Origin: an uncultured Acidobacteriota bacterium | Lineage (GTDB): Bacteria; Acidobacteriota; Vicinamibacteria; Vicinamibacterales; 2-12-FULL-66-21 | Length of the DNA: 64,000 nt | Direction: 5' to 3' | Assembly: GCA_963725325.1 (NCBI GenBank) | Contig: CAVRYF010000001.1 | Location: 171,723-235,722, forward strand | Part shown: piece by piece, positions 4,128 to 59,173 of the stretch | How positions within the stretch are numbered: the first letter of the stretch is position 1 | Layout of the letters: every line of letters begins with the position of its first letter | The notes under the pieces: generated by a model | The model's input: the letters and a program-made list of their open reading frames with translations, nothing else | What the model was told of the DNA's origin: nothing | Database searches by the model: none | Translations under genes and position numbers: made by a program

Positions 4128-7100
4128 TCAGAACATCTGGCCGATTGAAAAGTGCCAGCGGACCCCGGTCTCGCCGAAGCTGCGCGGAAACCCGAGATCG
4201 ATGCGAATTGGCGCCAGGGGCGTCTTGATGCGAAGCCCGAATCCGAGTCCCACACCGAGCTCGTTCAACCGGATCGGCTGCGCGTTGGTGAACGTGTTCC
4301 CCGCATCGGCGAAGAGCACGCCGCTCAACCGCCAGAAGAGCGGCGCGCGGAGCTCGGCGTTACCCACGAACAGCTTCGTGCCTCCGAGTGGCGCGTCGAA
4401 GAACGAGTAGGCTGACAGCGCGTCTTGCGAATAGCCGCGCACGCTCTCCGTTCCGCCGGCATTGAAGAAGAGATCGAAAATCGTCAGCGTCAGCGGGCCG
4501 CCGAGCGGCTCCAGCTGGCCCCAGCGCACGTTGCCGGCCAGGACGACGGGACCGAGCGGCTGGTAATAGGACCCACGAATCAACATGCGCAGGTAATCGA
4601 CATCCGATCCGAACTCCCGCTGTCCCCACTGGAGGCTCACCGATCCGAACCAGCCGCGCTTGGCGTCGAAGAAGCTGTCCCGACGGTCGATGACCGCGGC
4701 ACCGTTCAGCGACGCCAGGATCCCGTTGAAGCCGAGGGTCTCCTCCCCGGTGGCATGCGACAAACGCACGTCGCGCCAGTCGTGGCTGTAGCCCCACGAG
4801 TACTCCACCGCGCGGCTCACCCGCCAGCGCTGCTCCATCGTCAGGTTGACCTCGTCTTCTCGCGCGGTGAGCTGCTCGTCCTGGTGTTCCTCGCCGCGCC
4901 CCGTCAGGAACAGGTTGGTTCGTATCGGGCGGCGCTGCAGCGTTGGCACCGAGAAGAGCGCTCGCGCGCTGCGCAGGTCTGGCTCGTACCGCAGACCCCC
5001 TCCGAGCGACATCCCTCGGCCGAGGAAGTTGCGGTCGCGGATATCCGCCGCAACGCCGAGCGCGTCGGTGCGTTGATCGAGCGCCGAGGTGTACTCCGAC
5101 GACAGCTCGAGCCCGTAACGCAACTGGAAGCGACGAGTCTCCTCGAGCGAGATCGTGGCCTTGACCGGAAGAGTCCCCTGGACCGGCCCAGGCGCAGGAA
5201 TCGGCTCGAGTCGAACTTCCGCGCGCCGGAAGGTCCCGAGCTGGTACAGCCGCTTCTCGGTTGCGGCGACGGCGGCCGCGCCGGCGGGTTGGCCCGGCGT
5301 CAGCTGAACGGCCTTGCTGACGAGCGACGGCCTGGTCGACTGCAAGCCCTCGATCTCGACGGAGCTGATCACGTGGAGCGGCCCCTCGTTCACCGCGAAC
5401 GTGAGCGCCATGTCCATTCCCTGCGACGCGGCGGTCGCCGTCGTCTCCACCTGCAGGTCGCGAAATCCGAGGTCGCGGTAGTAACGCTCCAGCCGCGCAC
5501 GTCCGGATCGATCCGCCCCGGCGGCAAATGGTGACCCCACGGCAAGGGCGATCGCCTCGAGCGCTCCAGCCCGCCGCTCGGGCGCAACGCCCGTCAGCTG
5601 GACTGCCGCCACCTGCGCCGCCCGCCCCTCGTCGATCCGAATCGGCAACGTCGCGGCGTCGTCCGCGAACTCGATTGGCCCGATGGTGACGCGCGCCGCG
5701 AGGTAGCCCTTCGCAGCGTATGCCTCGCGGATCGCCGCGATCAGCGGCCCCGGATCCGTCCACGCGTTGGCATCGAGTCGACCCGACGCTGTGAGCTCCT
5801 GCAACGTCTGAGTCGCGAGCACCTCGTTGCCTCGGAACGCAAGCTGGCGGGAGCCCGTGCGGCGGCCGGGATCGATGCGGACGCGTGCGCGCTCGGTGTC
5901 GCGGTCGGGGCGATCGACCTCGACCTCGATCCGGGCGCGGAGGAACCCGGCATCGATGAGATGATCGCGGGTTGCCTTGGTGAGCCTGTCGTCCAGCAGG
6001 TCGAGCACCACGTTTTCGGACCACGTCTGCCGAAGGCGATTGAGGAGATCGTCACCGCCCTCGTATCCAGTGACTTCGAGCACCGTTCGTCGTCCCCGCG
6101 CGATGCGGTACTGGAGATCGACGGGACGTTCCTTGCCTGTGCTCTCGGCCGTTGTGCGCATCGGAACGACTCGCGCGGTGTAGTACTCCCTGTCCCGGTA
6201 GAACCGCTCGATGCGATCGCGATCCTCCAGCCATGCTCGGAACTCGAAGCGGTGGCCCTGTCGGAGCTTGGTACCCGCCAGCACCTGCTCGGCGCTGTAG
6301 CCGGGATCGCCAGCGAGTGCCACTGCGCGCACCTTGTCCTCGACGACACTGGCGGCGCGGGCGCGGGGGCGCGGGGAGACACCGGGGCCGAAGGTAATCT
6401 CCTGACGGAACTCGAACGCCTCCTTGGTGTTCTCCTCCGACGACACACGGAACTCGTAACCGCTGACCGGGCGGTAGATGATGATCCAGGTGGACTCGTT
6501 CTCCTCGAGGTTTTCCGAGAACACGAGCTCGAACTTCGTACGCACCCGCTTCGACACCGTCAGGCGAGTGGCCGGGTCGACGTCGCTCGACACGAGGTCG
6601 AGGTCTTCAGTGCCAACGCTCACCGTATCGAGCCCGACGAACTGCCCGGCGACCCCAAGCACGTCGCCTGACACCGCGCCGACGGCGAAGGTATTGCTGT
6701 CGGTCGTTCCCCTCGCCGGATCCGCAATCTGGCCCGTGACGAGCAGGGAGCGTACGTCCCGCTCGCTCAGCGGCGGATCGGACGAGAAGTTCGTTTCAAT
6801 CTGGTCGGCTCGTCCGCTCATTCGCACGGTGACGAGGTACGAGCTGACGTGCGCCTCGCCGATGAGGTTCAGGCGTGGCAGAAGCCCCGTCGCTGGCGAA
6901 AACTCGAGCCGACTCTCCGTCAGTCGGTACGAGCGCCCTCCCATGCGAATCCGTCCGTCGTCCTGGATCGTCACCTGCCCGTCGAGCGCCGGGCGGCCGA
7001 CCGTGCCCGTGACGCGCACGTCGGGTACCAGTTCGACATTCAGCACGCTCTGATCGACGACGATGGGACCAACTGAGTTGAGGCGGATGTCGAGGGCCGT

Positions 7101-10100
7101 AGCCGCAATCCACGGTGCCACCGACCGCGGTGGCGCACCGCCAGGTGTGACAGCGGAGATCGCCGACGCAAGCGCAGTGATCGGTTCCCGATAGCTGTCC
7201 GAGGCGATCGTGATCTGACCGGACAGGCGTGACCCCGATGCGGCGTTCTCCCATGTGAGGCGCGTGTCGAGCTGACTGCGCAGCCCCTTGGGGACCTCGA
7301 CGAACAAACCGCGCGCTTCGACATGCAAGGGACGCGGCGCGACCGTGCCGGCGAAAATCGGAACCGCTCCTTCGATCGTGATGTCGCCGCCGTTCAACTG
7401 TGCCTTGAGCCCGCGGGTGTCGAGGACACCAGCCTCGAGCGTCAGCGGCCCCGAGAGGCCCGCGAGTGCCAGCTGCCAGTCCGGCTCGACGATGTTGACG
7501 TCGTGCAAGTCGATTTTCGCGGACGCGCGGCGCGCTCCGGGTGGCCCCGCAACACGAACCTGGAAGGTGGCCTCGCCACCGATTCCCGTGGCCATCATGC
7601 GGAGAAGCCCCAACGCGGTGCTCCCTTCAGCCCGAACCTCTCCTTCGGTGCCTGGCAGAAGGCCGATAGCGCCCGAGGCCGTGAGGAACGAGCGAGGTCC
7701 CTTCCAGTCGAGTGCCCCGACTTCCAGCCGCCCGCGATCGAATCGCAGCCTCGTCGGTACCTGCTGGGTCAGGCCGACATCGTCGACCGAGACCTGGGCA
7801 GCCTCGAAGGTGACCGTGGCCACGACATCGTCCAGTCGCGGCTCGGTCGCGTGGGCTTCAAGAGCGACCTTCGCGGTCCCCGTTATGTTCGTGTTCTTGA
7901 TGCCGAGCGCTTGAAGCGCCGGGACGAGCATTGCATCCGCTCGCGCCGTCACTGTTGCTTCGGTCGGTGAGATGTTTCCAGGAGCGGGCGGGCCGTCCGC
8001 CAGCCATGCGGGGACAGCCCAGCCGAGAGGCATTCGCGCCCTGGCGCTGAATGGTGCCCCGAGAACAACGCCATCGTCGACTGAGAACTCAATGGCACTC
8101 CCTCGAATGCGGGTCTGCAGGTGGACGCCACGTGCGAGCTCGCCTTCGGCGCGCATCAGCCGGTCAATCGTCGCGTCGGCATCGCCGGCGATCGCGAAGC
8201 GGTCCCCATCCTGGTCCAGCGAGACCTGCGCACGAACCGGTCCCTCCACCAGCCACGGCGTGATGAGCATGCTGGGTGGGAGGAAGGCGATCCCGTCCTC
8301 GATGCGGCCTTCGAGCGTGACCAGGACGCCGCTCTCGCGCTCGCGGACACGCGCGAGCCCCATCGAGAACCCCCCCAGCGTGATGCGGAGTGGCGCCTCC
8401 AGAGTTGGCCGACGCCCATCGAACCTGATTCGTCCTGGCTGAAGGAGGCGAAGCGGCCTGCCCCGAAGTTGTCCCTCGATCTCCGGGACGGTAACGACTC
8501 CGGTAGATTCGAGCGGCCGAGTGAGCTGACCTTTGACATCCGCAGATGCGGTGACCGTTGCGGAGGTGTCGGGCAGGGCAATCGTCCTACCCCACAGCGC
8601 CACGAGCGATGTCAGCTGGCTCCTGCGAAGGGTTGCGCGGGCCTCGAAAGGCCACTCCGGCTCGAAACCAATGCGGCCGCTGATTTCAGCGCTCAAGGTC
8701 GGCAGCCGGAAATCGAACCGGACTGCCGCGTCGGCACTGCCGGCGGTCAACTCGACTCGCCCGAGCGTGCGACCGTCGATGGCGACGTCGCCAGCAACCA
8801 TCGAGAACGTTCCCGTCGGTTGTCTGGGCGAGCCGGCGACATCGAATTCGACGGCGGCGTCACCGAGGTGTAGAGCCTCCGCCGCGGGCGGCGCCGCTGA
8901 CGGTGGAGACCTAGTGCCAGTGACAGTCCGCAATGACAGCGCGAGCTTCTCCCCGCGTCCGGAGATCCGCATGCGCCCCAGGCGGCGATCGATGCCGGCT
9001 TCGAGCCGGAGCCATCCGTCGCCACGATTCAGGCGAAGTCCGGTCACATTCAGGACGCCTTGCGCGAAAGTGACGTCCCCGTCGAGCGAGTCGATGGCGA
9101 TTCCGTTCGCATCGAGGCCGGAACCTGAGATTCGCGCCGCCAGCCGCGGATCGGCCGTCGATCCGTCCAGCGTCCCTGAGATAACGAGCGACCCTGATGG
9201 CCGCCACTCGGCCGGGAGCGCAGCAGCGAGGACCTCTGGCCTGTCGAGTCGGGCGTCCACGGCGAGATGGATCGGACCGTTGCCGGCCGTCGCCGTCCCG
9301 TGTACGTCGACTCGATTGCCGGAACCTTCGGCCGTCATCCGGGTGATCTCGACCGCTCGGCCCTGGAGGCGCACCTGCGCTTCGCCGCGGACCTGCTCTA
9401 TTCCCCCCAGTGCGAGCGAGTCCGCGGTGAGCCTTGCCTCGAGCCGTGGCGAGGCCAGCGTCCCAGTGAGCGTCGCATCCGCTGTCGCCCGCCCTGCTTG
9501 CAGCACCGCCGCGAGATCGGCCGGCAGGAATCCGTTCCGCTGCAGATCTCGCATCGCATCCTTTACGTTCGCGGACTGGGCGCCGAAGCGACCGGTCAGG
9601 GTCGATTGCGCCAAGCGCGCGCGATCGAGGACGACCGAGATGTCGGCGGCCACGCTCGTGTCGCCTTCGAGCGCGCCGCGGGAGTGCACGCGCCAACGCC
9701 CCCGTTCACCAGTGGCATCGACCGTCGCGATCGTGGCGCGCGGCGCCGCGACATTCAGGACGGCCATCTGGATGCGGCCGCTGAGTGACTCAGGGCCGGG
9801 CACCGACCCGGGCCACATGAGGTCGGCCGCGAGCGTCAGTGGCGCGGCGGGCAGCGCGGACGCCCTGGCCACAGGGGCAAGGCGGCTGGCATTCTCTACG
9901 GTCGCCGCAGCGCGCAGAGAGCTGGAGCCTTCGTGGTCACCGATAACCAGACGCGCGGCCCCGTTCAGATTCGCACCCAGCGCGCGGCTCGAAGCGGTGT
10001 ACCGATCGATCGTCAGATCCGTACCCGACCAGCGGCCGCCCGCCGACACGCTGGCGTCCGTGACCTCCTGCCATTGAAGGCGTCTGACGCGGCCATCGAA

Positions 10101-11012
10101 GCTTCCGACGGGATGTTCGAGCGTCCCGCCGACGGTGCCTGACGCCTCAAGGTCGCCCTCGAGCGGAGGCAACTCCTTCGACCATTTATTGAGCTCGCCG
10201 AGCGCGACCCGCGCGTCGTACTTCACCTCGAGATCGCCGCGGCTCACGTCGAGGTGAGCGGTCCCGCCGATCGCCGCCACCGGCGACTCCATCGTGATCG
10301 ACGTGAGGGCCAGCGACGTTCCGTTGAGTGACACGTCCGCCCGCGCCCGATCGAAGCCAATCTCCGCCGTTCCGCGCCGGACCGACCACCCGCCCGACAC
10401 GACGACCGCTCCCCGCACGACTCCTGGGCCTTCGCCGGTGAACGACAGCGAGAGCCCGCGAACAGAGACGTGCGTGCCGCTTAAACTGACAGACGTGACC
10501 GCGAGATCGCGAACCCGCCCGTCCTTGATGTCGAATGCGGGAACGGTTGAGGAGGATCGTGCGTGAGCCTGCCTCTCGCGGTCAGCCGCCGGAACCGGGG
10601 ACGCACCTCGCGTTGTGGAGTCGAGCACGACTTCGGGCTTGGTGACGTCGAGCCGGCGGAGCACCAGGGTTCCGCGGAGAATAGCGGGGGAAAAGTCGAC
10701 TTCTACGCGTTCCGCCTTGAGGAACGGATGCGCCGCGGTGGATTGCCTGATGTTGACGGCGCGCAACGTCACGCCGAGCGAACTGGGCCGGTAGTCGAGA
10801 CCGGCGGCGCGCGCCTCGATCCCAAGACGATCGAGAAGCGACGCAGACAGGGTGCGGAGCACGAGCGCCTTGCCCGCCGAAGAGGCAAGGAAGAGGGCAC
10901 CGCCGGCCAAGACCACCAGCAGCAGCAGGACGAGAACGATCGCCGGGCGCACCATCGCCCTGAGTCGACGCGCGATGAAGTGGCGAGTCTGCGGTTCCGA
11001 AGATGCTTGCAC
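4128..11012 (-). CDS. Giant envelope protein: TamB/AsmA-like (DUF490) region fused in-frame to a POTRA + Omp85 (BamA/TamA-family) beta-barrel
   Basis: Single 2294-aa ORF.
- N-terminal signal-anchor: MVRPAIVLVLLLLVVLAGGALFLA.
- TamB C-terminal type sequence: NFSSDPPLSERDVRSLLVTGQ ... YEFRVSSEENTKEAFEFRQEITFG, ending at nt ~6387.
- POTRA-like repeats follow, then an Omp85 barrel with FNAGGTESVRGY and terminal WHFSIGQMF. Confidence 0.85.
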   Translation of the reverse strand: MQASSEPQTRHFIARRLRAMVRPAIVLVLLLLVVLAGGALFLASSAGKALVLRTLSASLLDRLGIEARAAGLDYRPSSLGVTLRAVNIRQSTAAHPFLKAERVEVDFSPAILRGTLVLRRLDVTKPEVVLDSTTRGASPVPAADRERQAHARSSSTVPAFDIKDGRVRDLAVTSVSLSGTHVSVRGLSLSFTGEGPGVVRGAVVVSGGWSVRRGTAEIGFDRARADVSLNGTSLALTSITMESPVAAIGGTAHLDVSRGDLEVKYDARVALGELNKWSKELPPLEGDLEASGTVGGTLEHPVGSFDGRVRRLQWQEVTDASVSAGGRWSGTDLTIDRYTASSRALGANLNGAARLVIGDHEGSSSLRAAATVENASRLAPVARASALPAAPLTLAADLMWPGSVPGPESLSGRIQMAVLNVAAPRATIATVDATGERGRWRVHSRGALEGDTSVAADISVVLDRARLAQSTLTGRFGAQSANVKDAMRDLQRNGFLPADLAAVLQAGRATADATLTGTLASPRLEARLTADSLALGGIEQVRGEAQVRLQGRAVEITRMTAEGSGNRVDVHGTATAGNGPIHLAVDARLDRPEVLAAALPAEWRPSGSLVISGTLDGSTADPRLAARISGSGLDANGIAIDSLDGDVTFAQGVLNVTGLRLNRGDGWLRLEAGIDRRLGRMRISGRGEKLALSLRTVTGTRSPPSAAPPAAEALHLGDAAVEFDVAGSPRQPTGTFSMVAGDVAIDGRTLGRVELTAGSADAAVRFDFRLPTLSAEISGRIGFEPEWPFEARATLRRSQLTSLVALWGRTIALPDTSATVTASADVKGQLTRPLESTGVVTVPEIEGQLRGRPLRLLQPGRIRFDGRRPTLEAPLRITLGGFSMGLARVRERESGVLVTLEGRIEDGIAFLPPSMLITPWLVEGPVRAQVSLDQDGDRFAIAGDADATIDRLMRAEGELARGVHLQTRIRGSAIEFSVDDGVVLGAPFSARARMPLGWAVPAWLADGPPAPGNISPTEATVTARADAMLVPALQALGIKNTNITGTAKVALEAHATEPRLDDVVATVTFEAAQVSVDDVGLTQQVPTRLRFDRGRLEVGALDWKGPRSFLTASGAIGLLPGTEGEVRAEGSTALGLLRMMATGIGGEATFQVRVAGPPGARRASAKIDLHDVNIVEPDWQLALAGLSGPLTLEAGVLDTRGLKAQLNGGDITIEGAVPIFAGTVAPRPLHVEARGLFVEVPKGLRSQLDTRLTWENAASGSRLSGQITIASDSYREPITALASAISAVTPGGAPPRSVAPWIAATALDIRLNSVGPIVVDQSVLNVELVPDVRVTGTVGRPALDGQVTIQDDGRIRMGGRSYRLTESRLEFSPATGLLPRLNLIGEAHVSSYLVTVRMSGRADQIETNFSSDPPLSERDVRSLLVTGQIADPARGTTDSNTFAVGAVSGDVLGVAGQFVGLDTVSVGTEDLDLVSSDVDPATRLTVSKRVRTKFELVFSENLEENESTWIIIYRPVSGYEFRVSSEENTKEAFEFRQEITFGPGVSPRPRARAASVVEDKVRAVALAGDPGYSAEQVLAGTKLRQGHRFEFRAWLEDRDRIERFYRDREYYTARVVPMRTTAESTGKERPVDLQYRIARGRRTVLEVTGYEGGDDLLNRLRQTWSENVVLDLLDDRLTKATRDHLIDAGFLRARIEVEVDRPDRDTERARVRIDPGRRTGSRQLAFRGNEVLATQTLQELTASGRLDANAWTDPGPLIAAIREAYAAKGYLAARVTIGPIEFADDAATLPIRIDEGRAAQVAAVQLTGVAPERRAGALEAIALAVGSPFAAGADRSGRARLERYYRDLGFRDLQVETTATAASQGMDMALTFAVNEGPLHVISSVEIEGLQSTRPSLVSKAVQLTPGQPAGAAAVAATEKRLYQLGTFRRAEVRLEPIPAPGPVQGTLPVKATISLEETRRFQLRYGLELSSEYTSALDQRTDALGVAADIRDRNFLGRGMSLGGGLRYEPDLRSARALFSVPTLQRRPIRTNLFLTGRGEEHQDEQLTAREDEVNLTMEQRWRVSRAVEYSWGYSHDWRDVRLSHATGEETLGFNGILASLNGAAVIDRRDSFFDAKRGWFGSVSLQWGQREFGSDVDYLRMLIRGSYYQPLGPVVLAGNVRWGQLEPLGGPLTLTIFDLFFNAGGTESVRGYSQDALSAYSFFDAPLGGTKLFVGNAELRAPLFWRLSGVLFADAGNTFTNAQPIRLNELGVGLGFGLRIKTPLAPIRIDLGFPRSFGETGVRWHFSIGQMF

Positions 11013-11106
11013 GTATCCCCCGCCGCGGGTGTGCCATGAGTGTCGGCCTGGTCGTTCGGCGAAGCCGACCGTTGACCGGACCGTTCGTCACCCCGGCCAG
11101 TACCTG

Positions 11107-11275
11107 TCATTGTCCTCGACCCGGGAAGGACAGGTCCAGCCGTTGAACCGGCCCTTTCGGATGAGATCGCTTCGCGGTGAAGAGTTGACGTCCCGGCTCG
11201 AGCGGATCGAGCGTGGCCTTCTTGGCATTGAGGGATGTGCGAGTAGTGCTCGAGCATTCGCCGCGAGAAGGGCCC
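11107..11275 (-). pseudogene. C-terminal stub of a tyrosine recombinase/integrase (frameshifted)
   Basis: Own translation gives AGPFSRRMLEHYSHI (catalytic-Tyr box). After a frame change it reads LNAKKATLDPLEPGRQLF...*. No upstream integrase sequence is present. Confidence 0.4.
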
Positions 11276-11529
11276 CGCGATCGATTCAAAGCAGCTGATC
11301 GGTGCCGGCGAGCGTCACCGTCCGTTGCAGTGCGAAACACCTCTTTGCGGTGACACGCCCCACAGACGACCGCCGTCGCGCTCGCAGAGCGTCTGGGCTT
11401 CCTTGAAGTACTCCTGCGCGCGCTGTTGATCGATCTGAGCGACCGCAGGCGGCGGGTGGCCTATAACCACGTACGCCAAGACTGCCGTGCAAAACGCTGA
11501 TATCCGCTTGACTACTCCCTGGCCGTTCC

Positions 11530-12897
11530 CTACCTTGGCACCACCCACGTTCCGACGATGCTGTCGTGCGGTCCGCGGCCGGGAACGGCAATAGTCCACG
11601 CGACGCCTGCCGCCATCAATAGGAACGCGAGACTGCCCACGATGAACGCCACGTCCGGAGACACACGCGGCTCGCCGAACATCGGCACTCCGACACAGGC
11701 GATCCACGCGAGCGCCGGCGACCAGGCGACCAGGAATCGGATCGCCGATCGCGCCCGGCCAATCTCGCGGCCGTCGCGGCTCACTACCGCGTGCCCGAGA
11801 GCCCGAGTGACCAGACCGCCCGGCACGGCCAGCACCGATATCAGGCCGCACACAATCGAGACCAACACCGGGATGGATGCGAACCCGCTGGCGACAAAGC
11901 CCCGGAGCGCCTCGCCACCGGCGGGGAAGTTTGCGCTCAAGTTTGCGCTCTCGGCTGCCAGCTCTTGAATCTGCGGGGCGACGATGGCGGAGGCACGAGC
12001 GAGCTCGTCGGGAGAGACCGCCGGGTAGCGCGCGGCGATCTCCGCCGACGTTCGTCTCCAACTGAGAAACGGTTCAATCTGAGGCGCCTGAGTGTTCCAG
12101 AACTCGTCGCTCGTGAGCTGCGAGCGAAAGTGCGCAGCAATATACTGCTCCGCCGCGGTGCGCTGCTCTTGGGTCTTGAACTCGGCATCGGCACTAGAGT
12201 CAGCGATCCACATCATCCACCTCGTGAAGTCGCTTCTCTGACGGAATATATTGCTGGCGTCTCCCTGGAGGGATCTCGCGAACATGGGAAGCATCACACT
12301 GACGATCAGGAAAAGTACGGCCAACGGCATCGCCGCTATCACCATCGGCAGGGCACGACGGACGCGTGAGGGACGGCTGGGAATCGATGCGAGACGCAGG
12401 AGCTCCGCTTTGACGTCAGCGAGCGCTGGCGGCGCTCCGGTCGCAAGTCGATTCAGGAGCGTCGTGGCCGACAGGGGCGCGGCCGGCTCCATGCCTGGCG
12501 CAGCCAGTTGCCTCGAGGCGGCCGCCAGCAGCTCGACAGGACTGAGAGTCTGATTGGCGTGTGATGAGGCCAGTCCTGGCCACAGAAAATCGAGCAGAAC
12601 GAGGCGCCCGTCCGCCCTCTTCCAGACATGCGCGAGAGTGGGGCGGATGTCCATCTCTTCGCGAACCGAAGCGTCGAGTTCGATCGTGAGGCTCGAGAGG
12701 GAGCGATGTACCTCGCGCCAGTCGGGTGTCAACGGCGCTGACAGAAGCGGCTCGCCGCCTGGCGCCTCGAAGGCGTCCCAATTCTCCGTCGCCGATCGGC
12801 GCCCCGCGAGCCAGTACCAGCCGCCCGGGCCGTGACACATCGCGCCGGGTCGCGTCGACCGGCGGTGTCCCTGGCGCAACTTCGTGAATCCAGACAT
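11530..12897 (-). CDS. Distal part of the Ser/Thr kinase gene (TM segments + C-terminal RDD domain); separate ORF only because of a frameshift
   Basis: The first ~20 codons overlap the kinase ORF in another frame. From WYWLAGRRSATENWDAFEAPGGEPLL onward the sequence is protein-like. C-terminus: GLVTRALGHAVVSRDGREIGRARSAIRFLVAWSP...HDSIVGTWVVPR, which is RDD-family-like. Confidence 0.6.
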   Translation of the reverse strand: MSGFTKLRQGHRRSTRPGAMCHGPGGWYWLAGRRSATENWDAFEAPGGEPLLSAPLTPDWREVHRSLSSLTIELDASVREEMDIRPTLAHVWKRADGRLVLLDFLWPGLASSHANQTLSPVELLAAASRQLAAPGMEPAAPLSATTLLNRLATGAPPALADVKAELLRLASIPSRPSRVRRALPMVIAAMPLAVLFLIVSVMLPMFARSLQGDASNIFRQRSDFTRWMMWIADSSADAEFKTQEQRTAAEQYIAAHFRSQLTSDEFWNTQAPQIEPFLSWRRTSAEIAARYPAVSPDELARASAIVAPQIQELAAESANLSANFPAGGEALRGFVASGFASIPVLVSIVCGLISVLAVPGGLVTRALGHAVVSRDGREIGRARSAIRFLVAWSPALAWIACVGVPMFGEPRVSPDVAFIVGSLAFLLMAAGVAWTIAVPGRGPHDSIVGTWVVPR

Positions 12898-14542
12898 GAC
12901 GACGAAGGATCGGATCGACCCCGATGAACAATCGTCCGCTGCCGGTCTCGCCGACTATCGTGTGCACGGCGTACGGTCCGACGCGTCGCAAGGACGAAAG
13001 AGCAGGCACGAGATCGGCAGGTGAAGCTTTCGGAGGGGCCGAGGCGACGAGTCGAAGGACGTTCCGCTGCACGACATGCGTACGGCTCAGGAGCTCATGG
13101 ACGCCGGTCCATCCGTTGCCACGGCGGGCCGTCGAGAACAGCAGAATGGTCGACAGGAGCGACAGCCAGACGTTGGGCCGCACATTCCAGGCGCCCATGA
13201 AGAAAACAGTGGGCACAAGGAACACCGCAGTACGCAAGCCAAGGCGCAGCCACCACCGGGCATTGCTCTCCGATGGGGTTTGCGATGTGACGCGCAAGCC
13301 CATGAGCCGCTTGCCCAGCGACGCGCCCCAGCCGCCTTCCACAACGAAGTAGTAGATCAGCCCCGTGACCCACGACCACGGCGCCAGCCTAAGCAGCGTG
13401 GTCGTGGATCCGAGCGTCGCGGCCATCCACGCCGAGACACTGAGCAGCCACGTCATGATCGCGAAGACGACCGAGTCAGCGATCCAGGCGATGAAGCGCG
13501 CCCCGAGCGGGGCAGGGACTTCATCCGCGGATCCGTACGGCCGCAGGAGGTCCGCCAGCTCGGCGTACGACTGCGGTCGTCCGGCGGGAGCCTTCGCGAG
13601 ACAGCGCAGCACGACGGCCGCGAGTCCGCGCGGAATGTCACGCCGAAGCGCACGCGGCGACGCGGGCTTCTCGGTCGCGACCTTCGAGACGAGCTCACGG
13701 ACGTCCGGCGCGTCGAGCGGCGGCCGTCCCGTCAGGAGGTAGTAGAGCGTCGCGCCGACGGCGTAGATGTCGGCGCGGACGTCCAGCGGCTCGCCTCGCA
13801 ACTGCTCCGGCGCGGCGAATTGCGGCGTGCCTTCGAAGCCCGTCGTCCCGAGTTCGTGCCGCACGTCGCGGGTCAGCGTCGAGATGGACAGCCCGAAGTC
13901 CCCGACCTTGACGTCGCCGTCCGCGTCGACGAAGCAATTCGACGGCTTGATGTCGCGATGGAGAATCCCCGCCGCTTGCGCCGCGTCGAGGCCGCCGATG
14001 ACGTCGAGCACGGCCGATACGGCGGCGGATGGAGGCATCGGCCCCTCAGCCGAGACGCGGTCTTTCAGCGTGCCGCCGGAGAGCAGCTCCATCGTGATCG
14101 CGGGCGCGCCGCCCACTTCTTCGCTGCCGAAGATGTAGACCGTGTGGGCGTGGCTGATCGATGCCGCGAGCTGCCCCTCACGAAGGAACCGTGCACGATC
14201 TCCGTCGCCCCGCAGCGTGGCGCGCAAGACTTTCAGCGCCAGGCGTCGTCCTGTCTCGAGTTGCTCGGCTTCGTAGACCTCGCCCATTCCACCCCGACCG
14301 AGCAGCCGGACGATCCGATACGGCCCCCAGACTTGTCCGTTCGCGAGGCGGGGCGAGCCAGGCCGCGACGGATCGCTCGTGGACGCGACGCCAGTCGAGG
14401 TCGCGTCGTTCGACCCGCTGAGCGCTTCCACGCCGGCGGTCAGCAGGCACAATGCGCACAGGCCTTCGGGCGGATCCGGTGGCAGTTGCCGCCCGCACCG
14501 CGGACACCGACGCGACAGGTGGGGCACCGTTTCGGACATCAC
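12416..14542 (-). CDS. Ser/Thr protein kinase with N-terminal Cys-rich region and RDD domain; authentic frame probably ends near 12830 (frameshift)
   Basis: Motifs present: CPRCGRQLPPDPPEGLCALCLL; LLGRGGMGEVYEAE...ALKVL; HRDIKPSNCFV; DFGLS. An RDD-like membrane domain follows (FIAWIADSVVF...GASLGKRLMGLRV). The last ~140 aa of the ORF are Arg/Ala-rich out-of-frame sequence. Confidence 0.85.
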   Translation of the reverse strand: MMSETVPHLSRRCPRCGRQLPPDPPEGLCALCLLTAGVEALSGSNDATSTGVASTSDPSRPGSPRLANGQVWGPYRIVRLLGRGGMGEVYEAEQLETGRRLALKVLRATLRGDGDRARFLREGQLAASISHAHTVYIFGSEEVGGAPAITMELLSGGTLKDRVSAEGPMPPSAAVSAVLDVIGGLDAAQAAGILHRDIKPSNCFVDADGDVKVGDFGLSISTLTRDVRHELGTTGFEGTPQFAAPEQLRGEPLDVRADIYAVGATLYYLLTGRPPLDAPDVRELVSKVATEKPASPRALRRDIPRGLAAVVLRCLAKAPAGRPQSYAELADLLRPYGSADEVPAPLGARFIAWIADSVVFAIMTWLLSVSAWMAATLGSTTTLLRLAPWSWVTGLIYYFVVEGGWGASLGKRLMGLRVTSQTPSESNARWWLRLGLRTAVFLVPTVFFMGAWNVRPNVWLSLLSTILLFSTARRGNGWTGVHELLSRTHVVQRNVLRLVASAPPKASPADLVPALSSLRRVGPYAVHTIVGETGSGRLFIGVDPILRRHVWIHEVAPGTPPVDATRRDVSRPGRLVLARGAPIGDGELGRLRGARRRAASVSAVDTRLARGTSLPLEPHDRTRRFGSRRDGHPPHSRACLEEGGRAPRSARFSVARTGLITRQSDSQSCRAAGGRLEATGCARHGAGRAPVGHDAPESTCDRSAASAR

Positions 14543-14699
14543 ATCCCCCGGTTCGTCTGAGGCCAGATTTGCCGTCGCTCGCGCCAGAGTTTCACGTGAG
14601 CTACGGCGGACATCTGGATCAGACAGAACCGTCGCCCGGGGTTACGCGCTCAACGCCTGAATGAGATGACGGATTTCGTCGTCGACGTCCCGCCCATCG

Positions 14700-15344
14700 T
14701 CAACGGTTTCGCGCGACGCGCTGGCGCAACAGGGATTGAAACCGGCGCCTGAGACGATGGACCGCGGCTTTGACCGCGCCTTCCGACGTCTCGAGGCGGG
14801 CCGCCACGCCTGCGTATCCGCCAACCGGCGCCTGTCCGAGCAGGCACGCTTTGAGCTCGTCGAACTCGGCCGCCCGTCCCTGAGCGATCCATTGCGCGCG
14901 AAGGTCGGTGAGCAGGCGCTCGACGACCGTCAACGCCCAGCGCCGATCGAACAGCGTTTCGGGTGTTGCGTGATCCTTGGGTTCGACGACGTATTGGCCT
15001 TCAGCGTTCTCGAGCGGGACCATCTGCCGGCCACCGCCGCGCTTCTGCGTCCGTTCACGTGCCGACCAGTTGGACAGGTAGTGTTTCAACGACGCCAGAA
15101 GGAACGCGCGGAATCGGCCTCGATCCTGACGTAGTCCCTCGAAGTCCTGCCGCTCGATGAGCGATGTTAGGAACCCCTGCGTCAGGTCGCGCGCATCTTC
15201 TGGGTCGAGGCCTCGGCGGCGGAGGTAGGCGTAGAGCGGATACCAGTAGGTCTGGCAGAGCGAAGAGAGGGCTTCACGCGCCGCCTGCGAGTCGTTCCCG
15301 GCGGCCGCCAGCACGAGACTCCACCGCGTCGTTTCGAAGGGCAA
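14700..15344 (-). CDS. ECF sigma factor of the Ser/Thr-kinase-linked type (ECF43-like); C-terminal end frameshifted
   Basis: MPFETTRWSLVLAAAG...YWYPLYAYLRRRG...AVHRLRRRFQSLLRQ. The expected C-terminus (ETVDDGRDVDDEIRHLIQALSA*) is encoded in another frame down to 14642. The gene lies directly upstream of the kinase. Confidence 0.8.
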   Translation of the reverse strand: MPFETTRWSLVLAAAGNDSQAAREALSSLCQTYWYPLYAYLRRRGLDPEDARDLTQGFLTSLIERQDFEGLRQDRGRFRAFLLASLKHYLSNWSARERTQKRGGGRQMVPLENAEGQYVVEPKDHATPETLFDRRWALTVVERLLTDLRAQWIAQGRAAEFDELKACLLGQAPVGGYAGVAARLETSEGAVKAAVHRLRRRFQSLLRQRVARNR

Positions 15345-15441
15345 GGCGACGCATCGTACGCCAGATGGTCGCCGCTCGCCACCTGATGAACTGCAGTGTC
15401 TCGCGATTCTTGACGCAGCGTGCTAAGTCGAACTGGTTCTA

Positions 15442-15509
15442 CCGCTCGCAAGTCGCTGATTCTAAAGTGGCCCAGAACTCCCACGCTTTGTGCGTCCGTA
15501 AACCTCGAT
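15442..15509 (+). repeat. Junction scar related to the tRNA-Ser upstream region (no tRNA part)
   Basis: ccgctcgcaagtcgctgattctaaagtgg resembles ccgcaagtgcttgattctaaacgg, found upstream of the tRNA-Ser copies. The downstream ccgtaaacctcgat also occurs at ~22770. Confidence 0.35.
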
Positions 15510-15514
15510 GTTCC

Positions 15515-16105
15515 TCAGTCAGCAGGACATCGCTGCCAGGCATCAAGGGACTCGAGGAATTGCCTTGCCTCGACCGCGGAGTTCTCGGCGATGTACGCGA
15601 GCAGCAATGTCCGATGTGGGCAGAGCCGCTTCTCAACGTACCAATTGAGGGGAAACTGGACATCGTCTTTTCGCACCAGGCCCGAGCGCACCGCCGACTG
15701 CAACTGACTGACCTCGAACAGAAAGCGGTCATACCGGTCAGTGATGAATCGCTGTGTTTCCGTGCGCTTGCGCCCGTTTTTTCGTAAGGATGCTTCAATC
15801 GCCACAGGGACATCTGTTGGTAGGATGCGCACGACCGTGCCAGGCGCGATCTCGTACGTGCGGCCTTCCTCCCAGTCCAGCATCGTCATCGCCTGCCAGC
15901 CGTCGTCTTTGATCATGGCGTTGACCATCGTTCGGGCCATGTCGGCCTGCTTCCACTCGAGCTCCCGCATGCTCTGCGAGACCCCTCGCCGGTATTGACC
16001 GATACCCACCGCCGCGGCGACAAGGGCGCTGAGGATCGCTGCGTACTTCCCAATCCATTCCAGCCTGGTCGCGTTAGGCACGGCGTCTCTCTCCAGTAGT
16101 TCCAA
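15515..16105 (-). CDS. Hypothetical membrane-anchored protein (orphan)
   Basis: 196-aa ORF with one N-terminal TM segment (YAAILSALVAAAVGIGQY). Amino-acid composition is balanced, and GC is lower than in the neighbours. I recognise no family. Confidence 0.5.
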   Translation of the reverse strand: MELLERDAVPNATRLEWIGKYAAILSALVAAAVGIGQYRRGVSQSMRELEWKQADMARTMVNAMIKDDGWQAMTMLDWEEGRTYEIAPGTVVRILPTDVPVAIEASLRKNGRKRTETQRFITDRYDRFLFEVSQLQSAVRSGLVRKDDVQFPLNWYVEKRLCPHRTLLLAYIAENSAVEARQFLESLDAWQRCPAD

Positions 16106-16130
16106 GTCCTCGAGACTTCACAGCCGTGCG

Positions 16131-17060
16131 TCAGAACTTGAGCGTCCAGCCACTCTGAACCTGACTCGAGGAGGCGCGCTGGCCGTTCCTGTTGACACGC
16201 GTACCGGCCAGGTAATCGACGACGATATCCACGAACGGGACCCGATTCCACATCAGACTAATCGATGTCCATTGGGTCCGGTAGGGCGTTTCGCTGTCAA
16301 GCACGCCTCTTACCGACCTCCGCCCGACGCGGTGAGTGCCTGAAGCGTGAAGATGTCCGGCGCCAGTGTGACGCCGACTTCGACGCGCTCGACCTCGTAG
16401 ATCGTGCGTCCGATCTGATCGTTGGACTCGACGTAGCGGTGGGGCACGCGCATCCCGCCGACGTCGCGATAGTCCGAGTACGTCGTCGTCGCCGGCATCG
16501 CACCGGCTTCGGCAACCGACATCGTCCGCCGATCCTGAAGCACGTCGCCGGTCTCCGCGTCCACGGCCACCATCAGCCGCGGTCCCTGCCAGGTGCGCAC
16601 GAACCACCCCATCCCGTAGCCGACGGTGCCGCCGACTTGGATCTGCGGCGTCCAGGTCGTCGTCAGGGCGGCGGGACTGATTAGCGGTTTTGCCGTCGTA
16701 GACGCCCTGGCGCAGCAGGAAGCGAATCCACGAGGTCATGTCGAGGGTCGTGGCGCTGATCGCGCCTGCGGGTGCGATGCCGTCGATGTTGTTCCCGCGT
16801 CTCGAGCGTGACCAGCTGGAATCTCTTCCGCGCCTCGTCCCACGTGTAGCCTCGAGCCACGCGTGGATCCTTCCACGCTTTCAGCAGCGACGTGCGCGTC
16901 GCGGCCATGCCGAGCGGAGCGAGGATGCGCGCCTTCATGAGCGTGTCCCAGGACGTGCCGGCCGCCGCGGCCGCCGCCGATCCCGCCGCGAGGTAGAGCA
17001 CGTTGTTGTAGAGGAACCGCTGACAAAACGGAGCAAACCAGCCTCAACCGCGCGGCGCTG
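16131..17060 (-). pseudogene. Beta-lactamase-family serine hydrolase remnant: 5'-truncated, several frameshifts
   Basis: Fragments lie in three frames:
- GWFAPFCQRFLYNNVLYLAAGSAAAAAAGTSWDTLMKARILAPLGMAATR...
- GAISATTLDMTSWIRFLLRQGVYDGKT
- GYGMGWFVRTWQGPRLMVAVDAETGDVL...
A stop lies directly upstream of GWFAPF and the SxxK region is absent. The last ~55 codons (...FVDIVVDYLAGTRVNRNG...SGWTLKF*) look like an unrelated OM-barrel C-terminus. Confidence 0.55.
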
Positions 17061-17228
17061 TACCGTGCGCATCGCGAGGTCGGCCGCAGTGAATGTCGCG
17101 TTCGTTCCGGGCGCGGTTGGCGCGGTCATAGTGGCGAATCCTGTTCCGAATCGGGCGTGGCGACCCGGATCGCGAGACGAATCCGACGTCCGAGGTGCAC
17201 GGTCGACATCGGACCCGCTCGCGTCCTT

Positions 17229-18737
17229 CTACGACTTTGGCATCAGTTTCTCGACGATCTGGTCAACCGTGAAGCTCGCGGCCTTCTGTCGCGGCGGGAA
17301 CTCTTTGAAACTCTCGAGCCATTCGTGCACGACCGCCTGCGCGGCGTACTGGAACGGGACATGCTCGACGAACCAGTCGTTGTATCTGATGCTGTCCTCG
17401 CCCGCCTCGAACGGATCCGATCGCAGATCGAACATCTTGGGGATGCGCATCTGCTTCAGCGGCTCGCGCCAGACCTGAAGTCCCGTGGCGAGCTGCTCGG
17501 CGAACACGATCTTGTACTGCTGCACCCGCAGCGCCATCAGGTCCCCATCGTCGCTCCAGTAAATGAAGCCGTCGCGCGGGCATGGCTCCTTGCCGGAAAG
17601 GAACGGGAACAGGTTGTAGCCATCGAGATGCACCTTGAAGCTCGTTCCGCCGATCTCGTGTCCTTTCTTGAGCTTGGCCACGATGTCCGGATCCCCGGCG
17701 GCGGCCGCAAAGGTCGGCAGGAAGTCGGTGAGCGAACCCATCTCGTTGATGACCTCGCCGCCTTTGATGACGCCAGGCCACCGCATCACGCACGGGACGC
17801 GCCAGCCGCCCTCCCAATTCGTATCCTTCTCACCGCGGAAGGGCGTCGCGCCGCCGTCGGGCCAGATGCATTCCTCGGCGCCGTTGTCGGTGGTGAACAC
17901 TACGACCGTGTTGTCGGCGACGCCGAGATCGTCGAGCTTCTTCAGCAGGTCACCGACATAGCCGTCGAGTTCGACCATCCCGTCCGGGTAGATGCCGTGC
18001 CCGGTCTTGCCCACCGAGGACGGCTTCAGATGCGTGAACACGTGCATGCGCGTGGGATTGAAATAGCAGAACCACGGCACCTTCTCTTTGGTCTTGCGCT
18101 CCATGAAGTCGAGGGCCGACGCCAGGAACTCTTCGTCTACCGTCTCCATGCGTTTCTTGGTGAGCGGGCCGGTGTTTTCAATCGTTTGCTTGCCAACCTT
18201 CCCAAACACCGGATCCTCGGTCGCATCGTCCTTGTCGGTGGCCTTGCACTTGAGGACACCGCGCGGTCCGAATCGAGCCTTGAACTTGGGGTCCTTGGGA
18301 TAGTCGGTGTACTCGGGCTCTTCCTCGGCGTTCAGGTGATAGAGGTTCCCGAAGAACTCATCGAAGCCATGCACCGTCGGCAGATGCTCGTTGCGATCGC
18401 CGAGATGGTTCTTGCCGAACTGGCCGGTCGCATAACCAAAGCCCTTGAGCACCTGCGCGATGGTTACGTCTTCCGCCTTGAGCCCGAGGGTCGCGCCAGG
18501 CATGCCGACCTTGGTCAGGCCTGTGCGGATCGGCTGCTGGCCCGTGAGGAACGCCGCACGGCCAGCGGTGCAGCTTTGCTGGCCGTAGAAGTCGGTGAAC
18601 ATCGCGCCCTCGCGGGCGATCCGGTCCATGTTCGGCGTGCGATAGCCCATGAGGCCGTGGTTGTAGCAACTCAGATTGAACCAGCCGATGTCGTCGGCCA
18701 TGATGAAGAGAATGTTCGGCTTGCCGGTCTTTGCCAT
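17229..18737 (-). CDS. Arylsulfatase (formylglycine-dependent sulfatase family)
   Basis: GGAGGA then ATG 18737: MAKTGKPNILFIMADDIGW...QQSCTAGRAAFLTG (C-x-A-x-R FGly motif). No signal peptide is evident. Confidence 0.9.
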   Translation of the reverse strand: MAKTGKPNILFIMADDIGWFNLSCYNHGLMGYRTPNMDRIAREGAMFTDFYGQQSCTAGRAAFLTGQQPIRTGLTKVGMPGATLGLKAEDVTIAQVLKGFGYATGQFGKNHLGDRNEHLPTVHGFDEFFGNLYHLNAEEEPEYTDYPKDPKFKARFGPRGVLKCKATDKDDATEDPVFGKVGKQTIENTGPLTKKRMETVDEEFLASALDFMERKTKEKVPWFCYFNPTRMHVFTHLKPSSVGKTGHGIYPDGMVELDGYVGDLLKKLDDLGVADNTVVVFTTDNGAEECIWPDGGATPFRGEKDTNWEGGWRVPCVMRWPGVIKGGEVINEMGSLTDFLPTFAAAAGDPDIVAKLKKGHEIGGTSFKVHLDGYNLFPFLSGKEPCPRDGFIYWSDDGDLMALRVQQYKIVFAEQLATGLQVWREPLKQMRIPKMFDLRSDPFEAGEDSIRYNDWFVEHVPFQYAAQAVVHEWLESFKEFPPRQKAASFTVDQIVEKLMPKS

Positions 18738-18816
18738 GTGAGTCCTCCTGACGCGTATCGACATCTGCGCTGTATCCGATTCCGATCCCATGCGTTGCCT
18801 GACGCGAGCGATCGAC

Positions 18817-19149
18817 TTACGCCAAGACGACCTTCCAGTCGTTCTTCATGCTGACCACGGTCCACCCGTGCGCCTTCGCGAGATCGAGCGCCTTCTCGGC
18901 GCCCGCGACGTAGTCGAATTCGCGCGTGCTGTCGTCGTGGAGCACGAGCAACCGAAGCGCCGGGCGGTCCTTGCCTCCGGTGAACTGCAGCATCTCGATA
19001 TCGCCATTGGAGTTGCCGACTGCCAGGATCGGCCGCCGTCCAATCCGGCTCCAGATGCGGACGGGTTTCACGGGACCGTCGTCGAACACATCCGGCTTCG
19101 CGAGGTACGCGAGCGATCCCCCGTCAGGGCCGACCGGACCAAAACACAC
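18817..19149 (-). pseudogene. C-terminal fragment of a HAD-superfamily hydrolase (paralog of 23053..24003)
   Basis: IGRRPILAVGNSNGDIEMLQF...LVLHDDSTREFDYVAGAEKALDLAKAHGWTVVSMKNDWKVV aligns with the last ~100 aa of the full-length HAD gene at 23 kb. The DxDxT N-terminus is missing. Confidence 0.6.
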
Positions 19150-59083: not shown

Positions 59084-59173
59084 GGAGAGATGCTGGAGTG
59101 GTCGATCAGGCACGCTTGGAAAGCGTGTGTAGGGGAAACTCTACCGAGGGTTCGAATCCCTCTCTCTCCGCCA
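59084..59173 (+). tRNA. tRNA-Ser (anticodon GGA), class II with long variable arm, CCA encoded
   Basis: - Acceptor stem: GGAGAGA/TCTCTCC.
- D-stem: CTG(G)/(T)CAG.
- Anticodon stem CACGC/GCGTG with loop TTGGAAA.
- Variable arm: tgtaggggaaactctaccg.
- T-arm: GAGGG-TTCGAAT-CCCTC.
- Discriminator G, then CCA. Confidence 0.95.

Follow-up and report, generated by a model that had tools for sequence, protein, structure and literature searches.

To our knowledge, the TamB and Omp85 halves of the TAM (Translocation and Assembly Module) are separate proteins in every species studied. In Escherichia coli, TamB's C-terminal domain consists of two helices and six strands, as seen by cryo-electron microscopy (cryo-EM), and in the TamAB complex its last strand pairs with β1 of TamA, its end facing the periplasm (PMC12800296). 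Since the loop leading to this strand, LP5, contacts the extracellular loop ECL1 (PMC12800296), we infer that the strand runs downward and brings the end of TamB to the periplasmic opening of the barrel, beside β1. How TamB engages its Omp85 partner is under current cryo-EM study, where the points at issue include whether the barrel is in a hybrid or a non-hybrid state and a reported distance of 23 Å to the membrane (PMC12800296). In Borrelia burgdorferi, tamB (BB0794) adjoins bamA (BB0795) and comes first (PMC4494059, PMC13382580); in a model of this pair, the C-terminal TamB strands complete the barrel of a BamA with five POTRA domains, and POTRA1 lies near POTRA5, so that a closed ring is formed (PMC13382580). 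For Acidobacteria, a BamA-TamB gene order and a second BamA copy next to the canonical one have been reported (Heinz et al. 2015, PMC4494059). Here we describe a gene in which a TamB region and an Omp85 barrel share one reading frame. It lies on a stretch of 64 kb from an uncultured acidobacterium of the order Vicinamibacterales (contig CAVRYF010000001.1), which was analysed as a whole and is referred to below as the window.

The gene probably encodes a genuine and conserved single-chain TAM, that is, a covalent and self-contained version of the module. Established here are one conserved frame, the identities and the order of the domains, the lack of any signal that would export the barrel half, and a fusion kept throughout the family, with linkers that vary little in length.

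One reading frame for a TamB region and an Omp85 barrel

A preliminary description of the window had regarded the gene as a single uninterrupted frame. The open reading frame (ORF) listing and the translation bear this out, as no internal stop occurs in the 2294 amino acids (aa). The features are as follows, with nucleotide positions in the window and aa positions in the protein.

4128..11012, minus strand: the entire fusion gene, which starts at GTG and has 2294 codons and a stop codon
11013..11052, minus strand: leader of about 40 nt with a GGGGGA Shine-Dalgarno-like run just 5' of the GTG, from a comparison of four related genomes (L001-L004)
10884..10946, minus strand: N-terminal hydrophobic helix (aa 23-43), PAIVLVLLLLVVLAGGALFLA, with Arg-rich residues before it; putative signal-anchor for the inner membrane
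6765..10883, minus strand: long β-rich TamB body (aa 44-1416), a predicted periplasm-spanning groove, from the AlphaFold2 model of aa 1101-1416 and a weak YhdP match
6471..7409, minus strand: match to Pfam TamB/DUF490, PF04357 (aa 1202-1514; E 4.9e-28, 98.9 bits, gathering cutoff 22.4)
6387..6764, minus strand: TamB C-terminal domain, with six β strands after two helices (AlphaFold2 secondary structure, aa 1417-1541)
6342..6386, minus strand: linker PGVSPRPRARAASVV (aa 1543-1557), 15 residues of Pro/Arg/Ala character, with a predicted local distance difference test score (pLDDT) below 50 at aa 1550-1556
5139..6341, minus strand: five POTRA domains (aa 1558-1958), seen as five β-α-α-β-β units in the AlphaFold2 model, with Pfam POTRA and POTRA_2 matches in the region
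4131..5138, minus strand: 16-strand Omp85 barrel (aa 1959-2294), from the AlphaFold2 model, Pfam Omp85 and matches to TamA and BamA in the PDB
4431..4442, minus strand: loop-6 VRGY motif of Omp85 proteins, conserved in a 34-sequence alignment
4131..4151, minus strand: C-terminal β-signal FSIGQMF, its terminal F invariant in the same alignment

The N-terminal half had been described as having TamB architecture, with an anchor, a β-rich body and a DUF490-like end, and both the Pfam TamB match and the N-terminal helix agree with this. The helix comprises 21 residues preceded by basic ones, and an equivalent is present in 78 of the 90 full-length homologues. An AlphaFold2 model that covers aa 1101-2294 and was built with the 34-sequence family alignment (pLDDT 81, predicted template modelling score 0.61) consists of continuous β strands at aa 1101-1416. 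The body also has a weak match to YhdP, and homologues show faint matches to AsmA, TamB_N and DUF748. In the C-terminal domain, the model places the two helices at aa 1417-1426 and 1441-1458 and the last strand, EAFEFRQEITFG, at aa 1530-1541. TamB is the sole solved chain that the N-terminal half matches by sequence. Judged by its NCBIfam TamB score, which is given below, the half is a distant member of the TamB family and no orthologue of proteobacterial TamB. The family profile of the TamB end aligns to residues 1032-1196 of E. coli TamB (E 1.6e-10). Because 76 profile positions stand against 63 remaining TamB residues beyond the aligned part, the fusion point corresponds to the native TamB C-terminus, without truncation. 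The C-terminal domain is thus kept, yet it is no longer the end of the chain.

The junction reads ...EFRQEITFG|PGVSPRPRARAASVVEDKVRAV and lies at aa 1542/1543 (nt 6387/6386); YEFRVSSEENTKEAFEFRQEITFG runs straight into PGVSPRPRARAASVVEDKVRAV. Neither a stop nor a start context nor a signal peptide was found at this point, either in the window or in 86 aligned full-length homologues, so that what had been stated for a single sequence holds for all those aligned. In the family alignment, a conserved EFRHxxxFG strand is followed by a variable linker and then by POTRA1. The linkers are 15-29 aa long (median 18), rich in A, R, P and G, and contain neither Cys nor a hydrophobic run; Met occurs in just 6 of the 87 aligned. 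An internal start with a cleavable signal peptide for the Omp85 part was likewise not found in the junction alignment, and only the Pro/Arg/Ala linker precedes that half. The two ends that dock in the split system, the TamB end and the POTRA domains, share one frame and are covalently joined, as had been proposed. The predicted structure matches this layout: it begins with a β-taco that leads into the two helices and six strands, and beyond a flexible linker come the five POTRA domains and then the barrel with its 16 strands.

For the C-terminal half, the sequence quoted earlier, FNAGGTESVRGY, and the terminal SIGQMF are both present. Pfam POTRA (PF07244) matches from aa 1560 with 68.4 bits (E 9e-19), POTRA_2 matches as well, and Pfam Omp85 (PF01103) matches aa 1995-2294 with 140.8 bits (E 9.5e-41). 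The TamB, POTRA and Omp85 profiles all exceed their gathering scores. Within the VRGY motif, R and G are invariant and Y is nearly so in the 34-sequence alignment, and the protein ends in G[QH]xF in 86 of the 90 full-length homologues, the terminal aromatic residue being kept. The proposed POTRA and barrel identity of this half therefore stands, but a TamA-like build with three POTRA domains does not, since five are present. In Foldseek searches, full-length E. coli BamA chains rank best (E 7e-36, about 830 aligned columns) and TamA comes next (E 9e-28), which, together with the five POTRA domains, makes the half BamA-like in build. When solved chains are compared by sequence, TamA of Pseudomonas aeruginosa comes first (E 2.4e-13) and BamA second.

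These findings bear on the possibility that the fused Omp85 is the principal BamA of the cell, as in Borrelia, and that the gene encodes a covalent hybrid of the TAM with the β-barrel assembly machinery (BAM) rather than an accessory paralogue. The five POTRA domains, the 16-strand barrel and the full-length BamA chains among the top structural matches are in line with it, and so is the order of TamB before Omp85, which is that of the spirochaete tamB-bamA pair (PMC4494059, PMC13382580). The NCBIfam model for BamA (TIGR03303) also outscores that for TamA (NF047950), at 166.6 versus 77.9 bits. Yet 166.6 bits is well under the BamA equivalog cutoff of 297, just as the TamA score falls short of its cutoff of 625 and a TamL score of 64.7 bits of its own. 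Moreover, the nearest solved chain by sequence is a TamA, and no envelope-biogenesis genes adjoin the fusion gene. Povalibacter uvarum, a carrier of the fusion that is introduced below, presumably has a canonical BamA like other gammaproteobacteria. Acidobacteria, too, are reported to possess a canonical BamA in addition to a second copy (Heinz et al., PMC4494059). On balance, we regard a role as principal BamA as quite unlikely.

Distribution of the fused gene

Close relatives were sought by scanning one genome per GTDB species. Five metagenome-assembled genomes (MAGs) of Vicinamibacteria/Acidobacteriota (L001-L005) carry the gene with 90-95% identity over the junction. It is an intact ORF of 2295 aa in L001. 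In L002-L005, frameshifts are scattered along the gene, and because of these scattered positions we read them as long-read assembly errors; the junction is nevertheless crossed in frame in all of these genomes. [quoted passage not shown] Purifying selection acts on the frame on either side of the junction.

For a wider view, aa 1101-2294 were used as query in a HMMER search of 1.84 billion representatives clustered at 50% identity. This gave 1180 matches below 1e-30, of which the best 150 were taken for the family counts. About 90 of these 150 are 1900-2409 aa long and 29-49% identical, and the entire query aligns to them in one stretch that reaches the C-terminus. The TamB C-terminal domain is followed by POTRA1-2 on one chain in 141 of the 150, and by the barrel as well in 131. 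The nine exceptions to the one-chain layout start mid-domain and have no signal peptide, and for this reason they are taken to be fragments. Among the candidates examined there was no genuinely split member, each being either a fragment or a frameshifted assembly. The comparison of fused and split versions suggested in the preliminary description has thus come out on the side of the fusion, both in the close relatives and family-wide. By these alignments, the architecture is not a one-off; it belongs to a large, old and conserved family.

Several sequences that seemed to be split versions were rejected. P0145, P0148, P0027, P0037 and P0130 start mid-domain and have no signal peptide; P0148 clusters with members of 133-1082 aa. 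P0272, an apparent stand-alone Omp85 of 695 aa on a 5.4-Mb contig, is really a fusion gene with two frameshifts off the junction.

The gene might in principle be an artefact or a pseudogene, two neighbouring genes having been merged through faulty assembly or sequencing or through the recent loss of a stop codon. The related long-read MAGs do carry many frameshifts in the gene, as expected of an error-prone data type. These frameshifts are scattered, however, and never yield a separate signal-bearing Omp85 gene. With identities of 29-95%, the fusion recurs in some 140 representative clusters as well as in an isolate whose genome was assembled twice, and both halves are under purifying selection. 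This reading is effectively refuted.

The same frameshifts have a consequence for annotation. In long-read MAGs (about 3950-10840 in L002-L005; 5307-12088 in a further one, L009), the 6.9-kb gene with its GC content of 67% is broken by one to six frameshifts, whose positions vary, and the fragments are labelled BamA, 'insertion porin' or TamB in databases. Many short database 'proteins' are pieces of the TamB-Omp85 fusion, which in long-read MAGs is often found broken up under the names of BamA or TamB.

The family is found mainly in soil Vicinamibacteria. Members include HXW08565.1, HSC28398.1, MGE0124358.1 and MCM3881757.1 from Vicinamibacterales MAGs and MPY90131.1 from Luteitalea sp. The only named non-acidobacterial member is WP_184332029.1 (2238 aa) of Povalibacter uvarum, a cultured gammaproteobacterium (Steroidobacterales), whose gene was recovered also in an independent Logan assembly of SRR12223101. 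As the Povalibacter copy clusters with Vicinamibacterales sequences, lateral transfer is suggested. In this genome (L006), the fusion gene (10001-16717) stands tail-to-tail with a gene for a 748-aa protein with a patatin domain (16732-18978). One further member, P0184 (MGD9903951.1 / MGE3411005.1), is labelled 'Dehalococcoidia' but shares a 90%-identity cluster with a Vicinamibacterales protein; the labelled contig has probably been mis-binned. An exact look-up of the window protein itself, with both candidate starts, gave no matching record.

Proposed working of a single-chain module

In the model that we favour, the N-terminal signal-anchor would hold the protein in the inner membrane with its N-terminus in the cytoplasm, while the next 2250 residues or so would be exported via Sec. 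The TamB part would then fold into a long β-groove across the periplasm, and the Omp85 part would be inserted into the outer membrane by BAM through its own FSIGQMF β-signal. The complete TamB C-terminal domain would remain tethered to POTRA1 by the short, flexible linker of 15-29 residues and, by analogy with E. coli TamAB and with Borrelia, may dock at the lateral gate of the barrel on its own chain, or inside that gate. This would create a permanent covalent bridge between the inner and outer membranes that might carry phospholipids along the groove, aid the insertion of outer membrane proteins (OMPs), or do both. By analogy with what has been proposed for TamAB, anterograde phospholipid transfer, OMP assembly or both would be the likely activity. 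We lean slightly towards a mature protein that stays uncut, with an α-helical inner-membrane anchor and an outer-membrane β-barrel, and that acts as a permanent covalent lipid or OMP bridge; such a protein would presumably reside in both membranes, with a putative lipid-transfer or OMP-assembly function.

Several points weigh against a single-chain TAM. The first 1100 residues of the window protein have no significant Pfam match. Both halves score below the NCBIfam equivalog cutoffs for TamB, TamA and BamA, the TamB model giving 43.4 bits against a cutoff of 825; by these scores, the two halves belong to their families, yet they are not orthologues of the proteobacterial proteins. Directly after the N-terminal helix, SSA|G (aa 44-47, nt about 10872-10883) is a possible signal-peptidase I site, and cleavage there would free the fusion protein from the inner membrane. 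This site is not conserved in the family, and homologues carry a conserved H-[TL]-P-P motif at the same place. Finally, accumulation of the 245-kDa product in uncleaved form is presumed, and the intramolecular docking of the TamB end on its own barrel would follow by analogy with the split complexes.

The linker could also be read differently. The gene might encode an export-coupled precursor in which the Omp85 half is exported behind the TamB anchor and the linker is then cut by a periplasmic protease, to leave a two-subunit complex. The disorder predicted for the linker (pLDDT below 50), its richness in Arg, Ala and Pro, and its dN/dS of 0.67, higher than that of both halves, would suit such a precursor. 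Many autotransporters are cut between passenger and barrel, which also counts in its favour. However, a conserved cleavage motif is absent from the 87 aligned linkers, and no gene for a dedicated protease is a conserved neighbour. Confined as it is to lengths of 15-29 aa, the linker looks more like a tether whose reach matters than like a spacer to be discarded. On balance, we consider processing of this kind unlikely.

A single-chain TAM would place evolutionary constraints on models of how TamB engages its partner. TamB-type bridges are leading candidates for the long-sought phospholipid route to the Gram-negative outer membrane. A conserved natural fusion fixes a 1:1 stoichiometry, limits the movement of the TamB end away from POTRA1, and indicates that a free carboxyl end is dispensable for the TamB C-terminus and that a five-POTRA, BamA-like barrel can serve as partner of TamB. 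If uncleaved, the protein would be natural proof that no more than about 15-29 residues separate the C-terminus of TamB from the POTRA1 end of the Omp85 part at any point of the working cycle, and a TAM could work with its subunits permanently associated. A single polypeptide embedded in both bacterial membranes would, moreover, be a rarity. Its biogenesis would pose a puzzle, as about 2250 residues have to be exported and the C-terminal barrel passed to BAM while the N-terminus is kept in the inner membrane. For structural and reconstitution work it would offer a ready-made single-chain TAM, and that of a cultivable Luteitalea, Vicinamibacter or Povalibacter could ease reconstitution.

The fusion gene stands alone. 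Across four divergent genomes, namely the window, Povalibacter and two metagenome-derived contigs with family members (L007 and L008), it has no conserved neighbours: an esterase, a SnoaL-like protein and a Ser/Thr kinase are encoded next to it in the window, and different, unrelated genes in the other three. A lone gene without conserved neighbours fits a self-contained system. No second Omp85 or TamB paralogue lies within the 64-kb window.

Upstream of the gene, the leader ccaggccgacactcatggcacacccgcggcgggggatac (11013-11052, minus strand) is near-identical across L001-L004 and divergence sets in further upstream; the GTG start and the basic N-terminal peptide are kept in the same four genomes. 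The leader may represent a conserved 5' untranslated region, a regulatory element or no more than the site of ribosome binding. Promoter and terminator scans gave nothing exceeding background. Further upstream, two minus-strand ORFs in different frames share about 480 nt: one of 455 aa (11530-12897) for a membrane protein with several helices, and one of 708 aa (12416-14542) for a Ser/Thr kinase that has an RDD domain. The membrane ORF has no Pfam match, and it is possible that the two are one long gene with a frameshift. An upstream ORF of 214 aa (14700-15344) resembles an extracytoplasmic function (ECF) sigma factor by eye but has no Pfam match. A tRNA-Ser(GGA) gene at 59084-59173 (plus strand) is the only RNA gene detected by an Rfam scan of the window.

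Comparison with known systems

The preliminary description had known of no account of a TamB-Omp85 fusion. This is in part upheld, as a natural fusion of this kind is not described in the literature searched, which comprised work on TAM evolution, an Omp85 survey, a 2024 TAM review and work on TamL and covers the field incompletely. Public sequence collections, however, already contain members of the family, where they bear unspecific names ('TamB domain-containing protein', 'BamA/TamA family outer membrane protein' and 'BamA/autotransporter translocation and assembly...' among them), from which it is clear that annotation pipelines see both domains. The combination of TamB and Omp85 is certainly listed in domain-architecture databases.

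A classical operon from the same order allows a direct comparison. The Vicinamibacterales MAG L010 (GCA_039916465.1) encodes a 635-aa Omp85 with a signal peptide, followed by a 1504-aa TamB. The two modules are the same as in the fusion, but they are split, the gene order is reversed, and the Omp85 has a signal peptide of its own. With Omp85 before TamB in this operon, simple read-through of a tamA-tamB operon does not account for the fusion, in agreement with the earlier argument from gene order. As the halves of the fusion share only 24-26% identity with these two proteins, the fusion is better seen as a deep, old paralogue than as a recent read-through. The L010 Omp85 (568-2475) begins MVRPSIRAVALCLLLLGAVAC|KEGG, by appearance a lipoprotein-type signal ending in Cys, and is in this respect reminiscent of the TamL lipoprotein of Bacteroidota.

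In chloroplasts, the TamB homologue TIC236 of the inner envelope is linked to the Omp85 protein TOC75 of the outer envelope. This is the same kind of connection, but it is made by separate proteins and in a eukaryotic organelle. Single polypeptides reaching both membranes have a precedent in type IV secretion, where VirB10/TraF is reported to insert into the inner as well as the outer membrane. In the outer membrane it contributes an α-helical antenna to a multimer and forms no self-contained β-barrel, and it is unrelated to the fusion in sequence and function.

Barrels that share their chain with a functional partner or a passenger have precedents in the Omp85 survey, namely the patatin-POTRA-Omp85 protein PlpD and Omp85 proteins with a WD40-like domain, 'reminiscent of a BamA-BamB fusion' (PMC4104836). 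None of these has an anchor in the inner membrane, nor an AsmA-like bridge across the periplasm. With its N-terminal domain, POTRA domains and Omp85 barrel, the layout of the fusion is formally that of type Vd secretion (PlpD; PMC4104836), and the TamB-like region might then be a passenger or adhesin exported to the surface via its own POTRA-Omp85 part. The N-terminal part, however, matches TamB/DUF490 up to the native TamB C-terminal domain, and its long, uncleaved-type N-terminal helix is kept across the family. There are five POTRA domains instead of one and neither a patatin nor an adhesin domain, and type V-like secretion is accordingly very improbable.

With the TAM of E. coli and other proteobacteria, the fusion shares a signal-anchored TamB part, which includes a DUF490 region and closes with a domain of six strands after two helices, as well as an Omp85 part whose 16-strand barrel is preceded by POTRA domains. 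The TamB end that docks on β1 of TamA and in the lumen is the very end that is fused here. Whereas the proteobacterial TAM consists of two separate polypeptides that dock non-covalently, with three POTRA domains and tamA preceding tamB, the fusion has both halves in one frame on one chain, with five POTRA domains and TamB preceding Omp85. Its barrel half lacks a signal peptide, and the two systems are only distant kin, below the TamA and TamB cutoffs.

The closest known analogue is the TamB-BamA pair of Borrelia. Both systems combine TamB with a five-POTRA Omp85 in the same gene order. In Borrelia, however, TamB and the Omp85 are made separately, and the latter is the sole BamA of the cell, partnered by BamB and BamD. 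The fusion, by contrast, links its two halves covalently and is probably an extra paralogue. Given the closed POTRA ring in the Borrelia model, a linker of 15-29 residues that joins the TamB end to POTRA1 is geometrically plausible.

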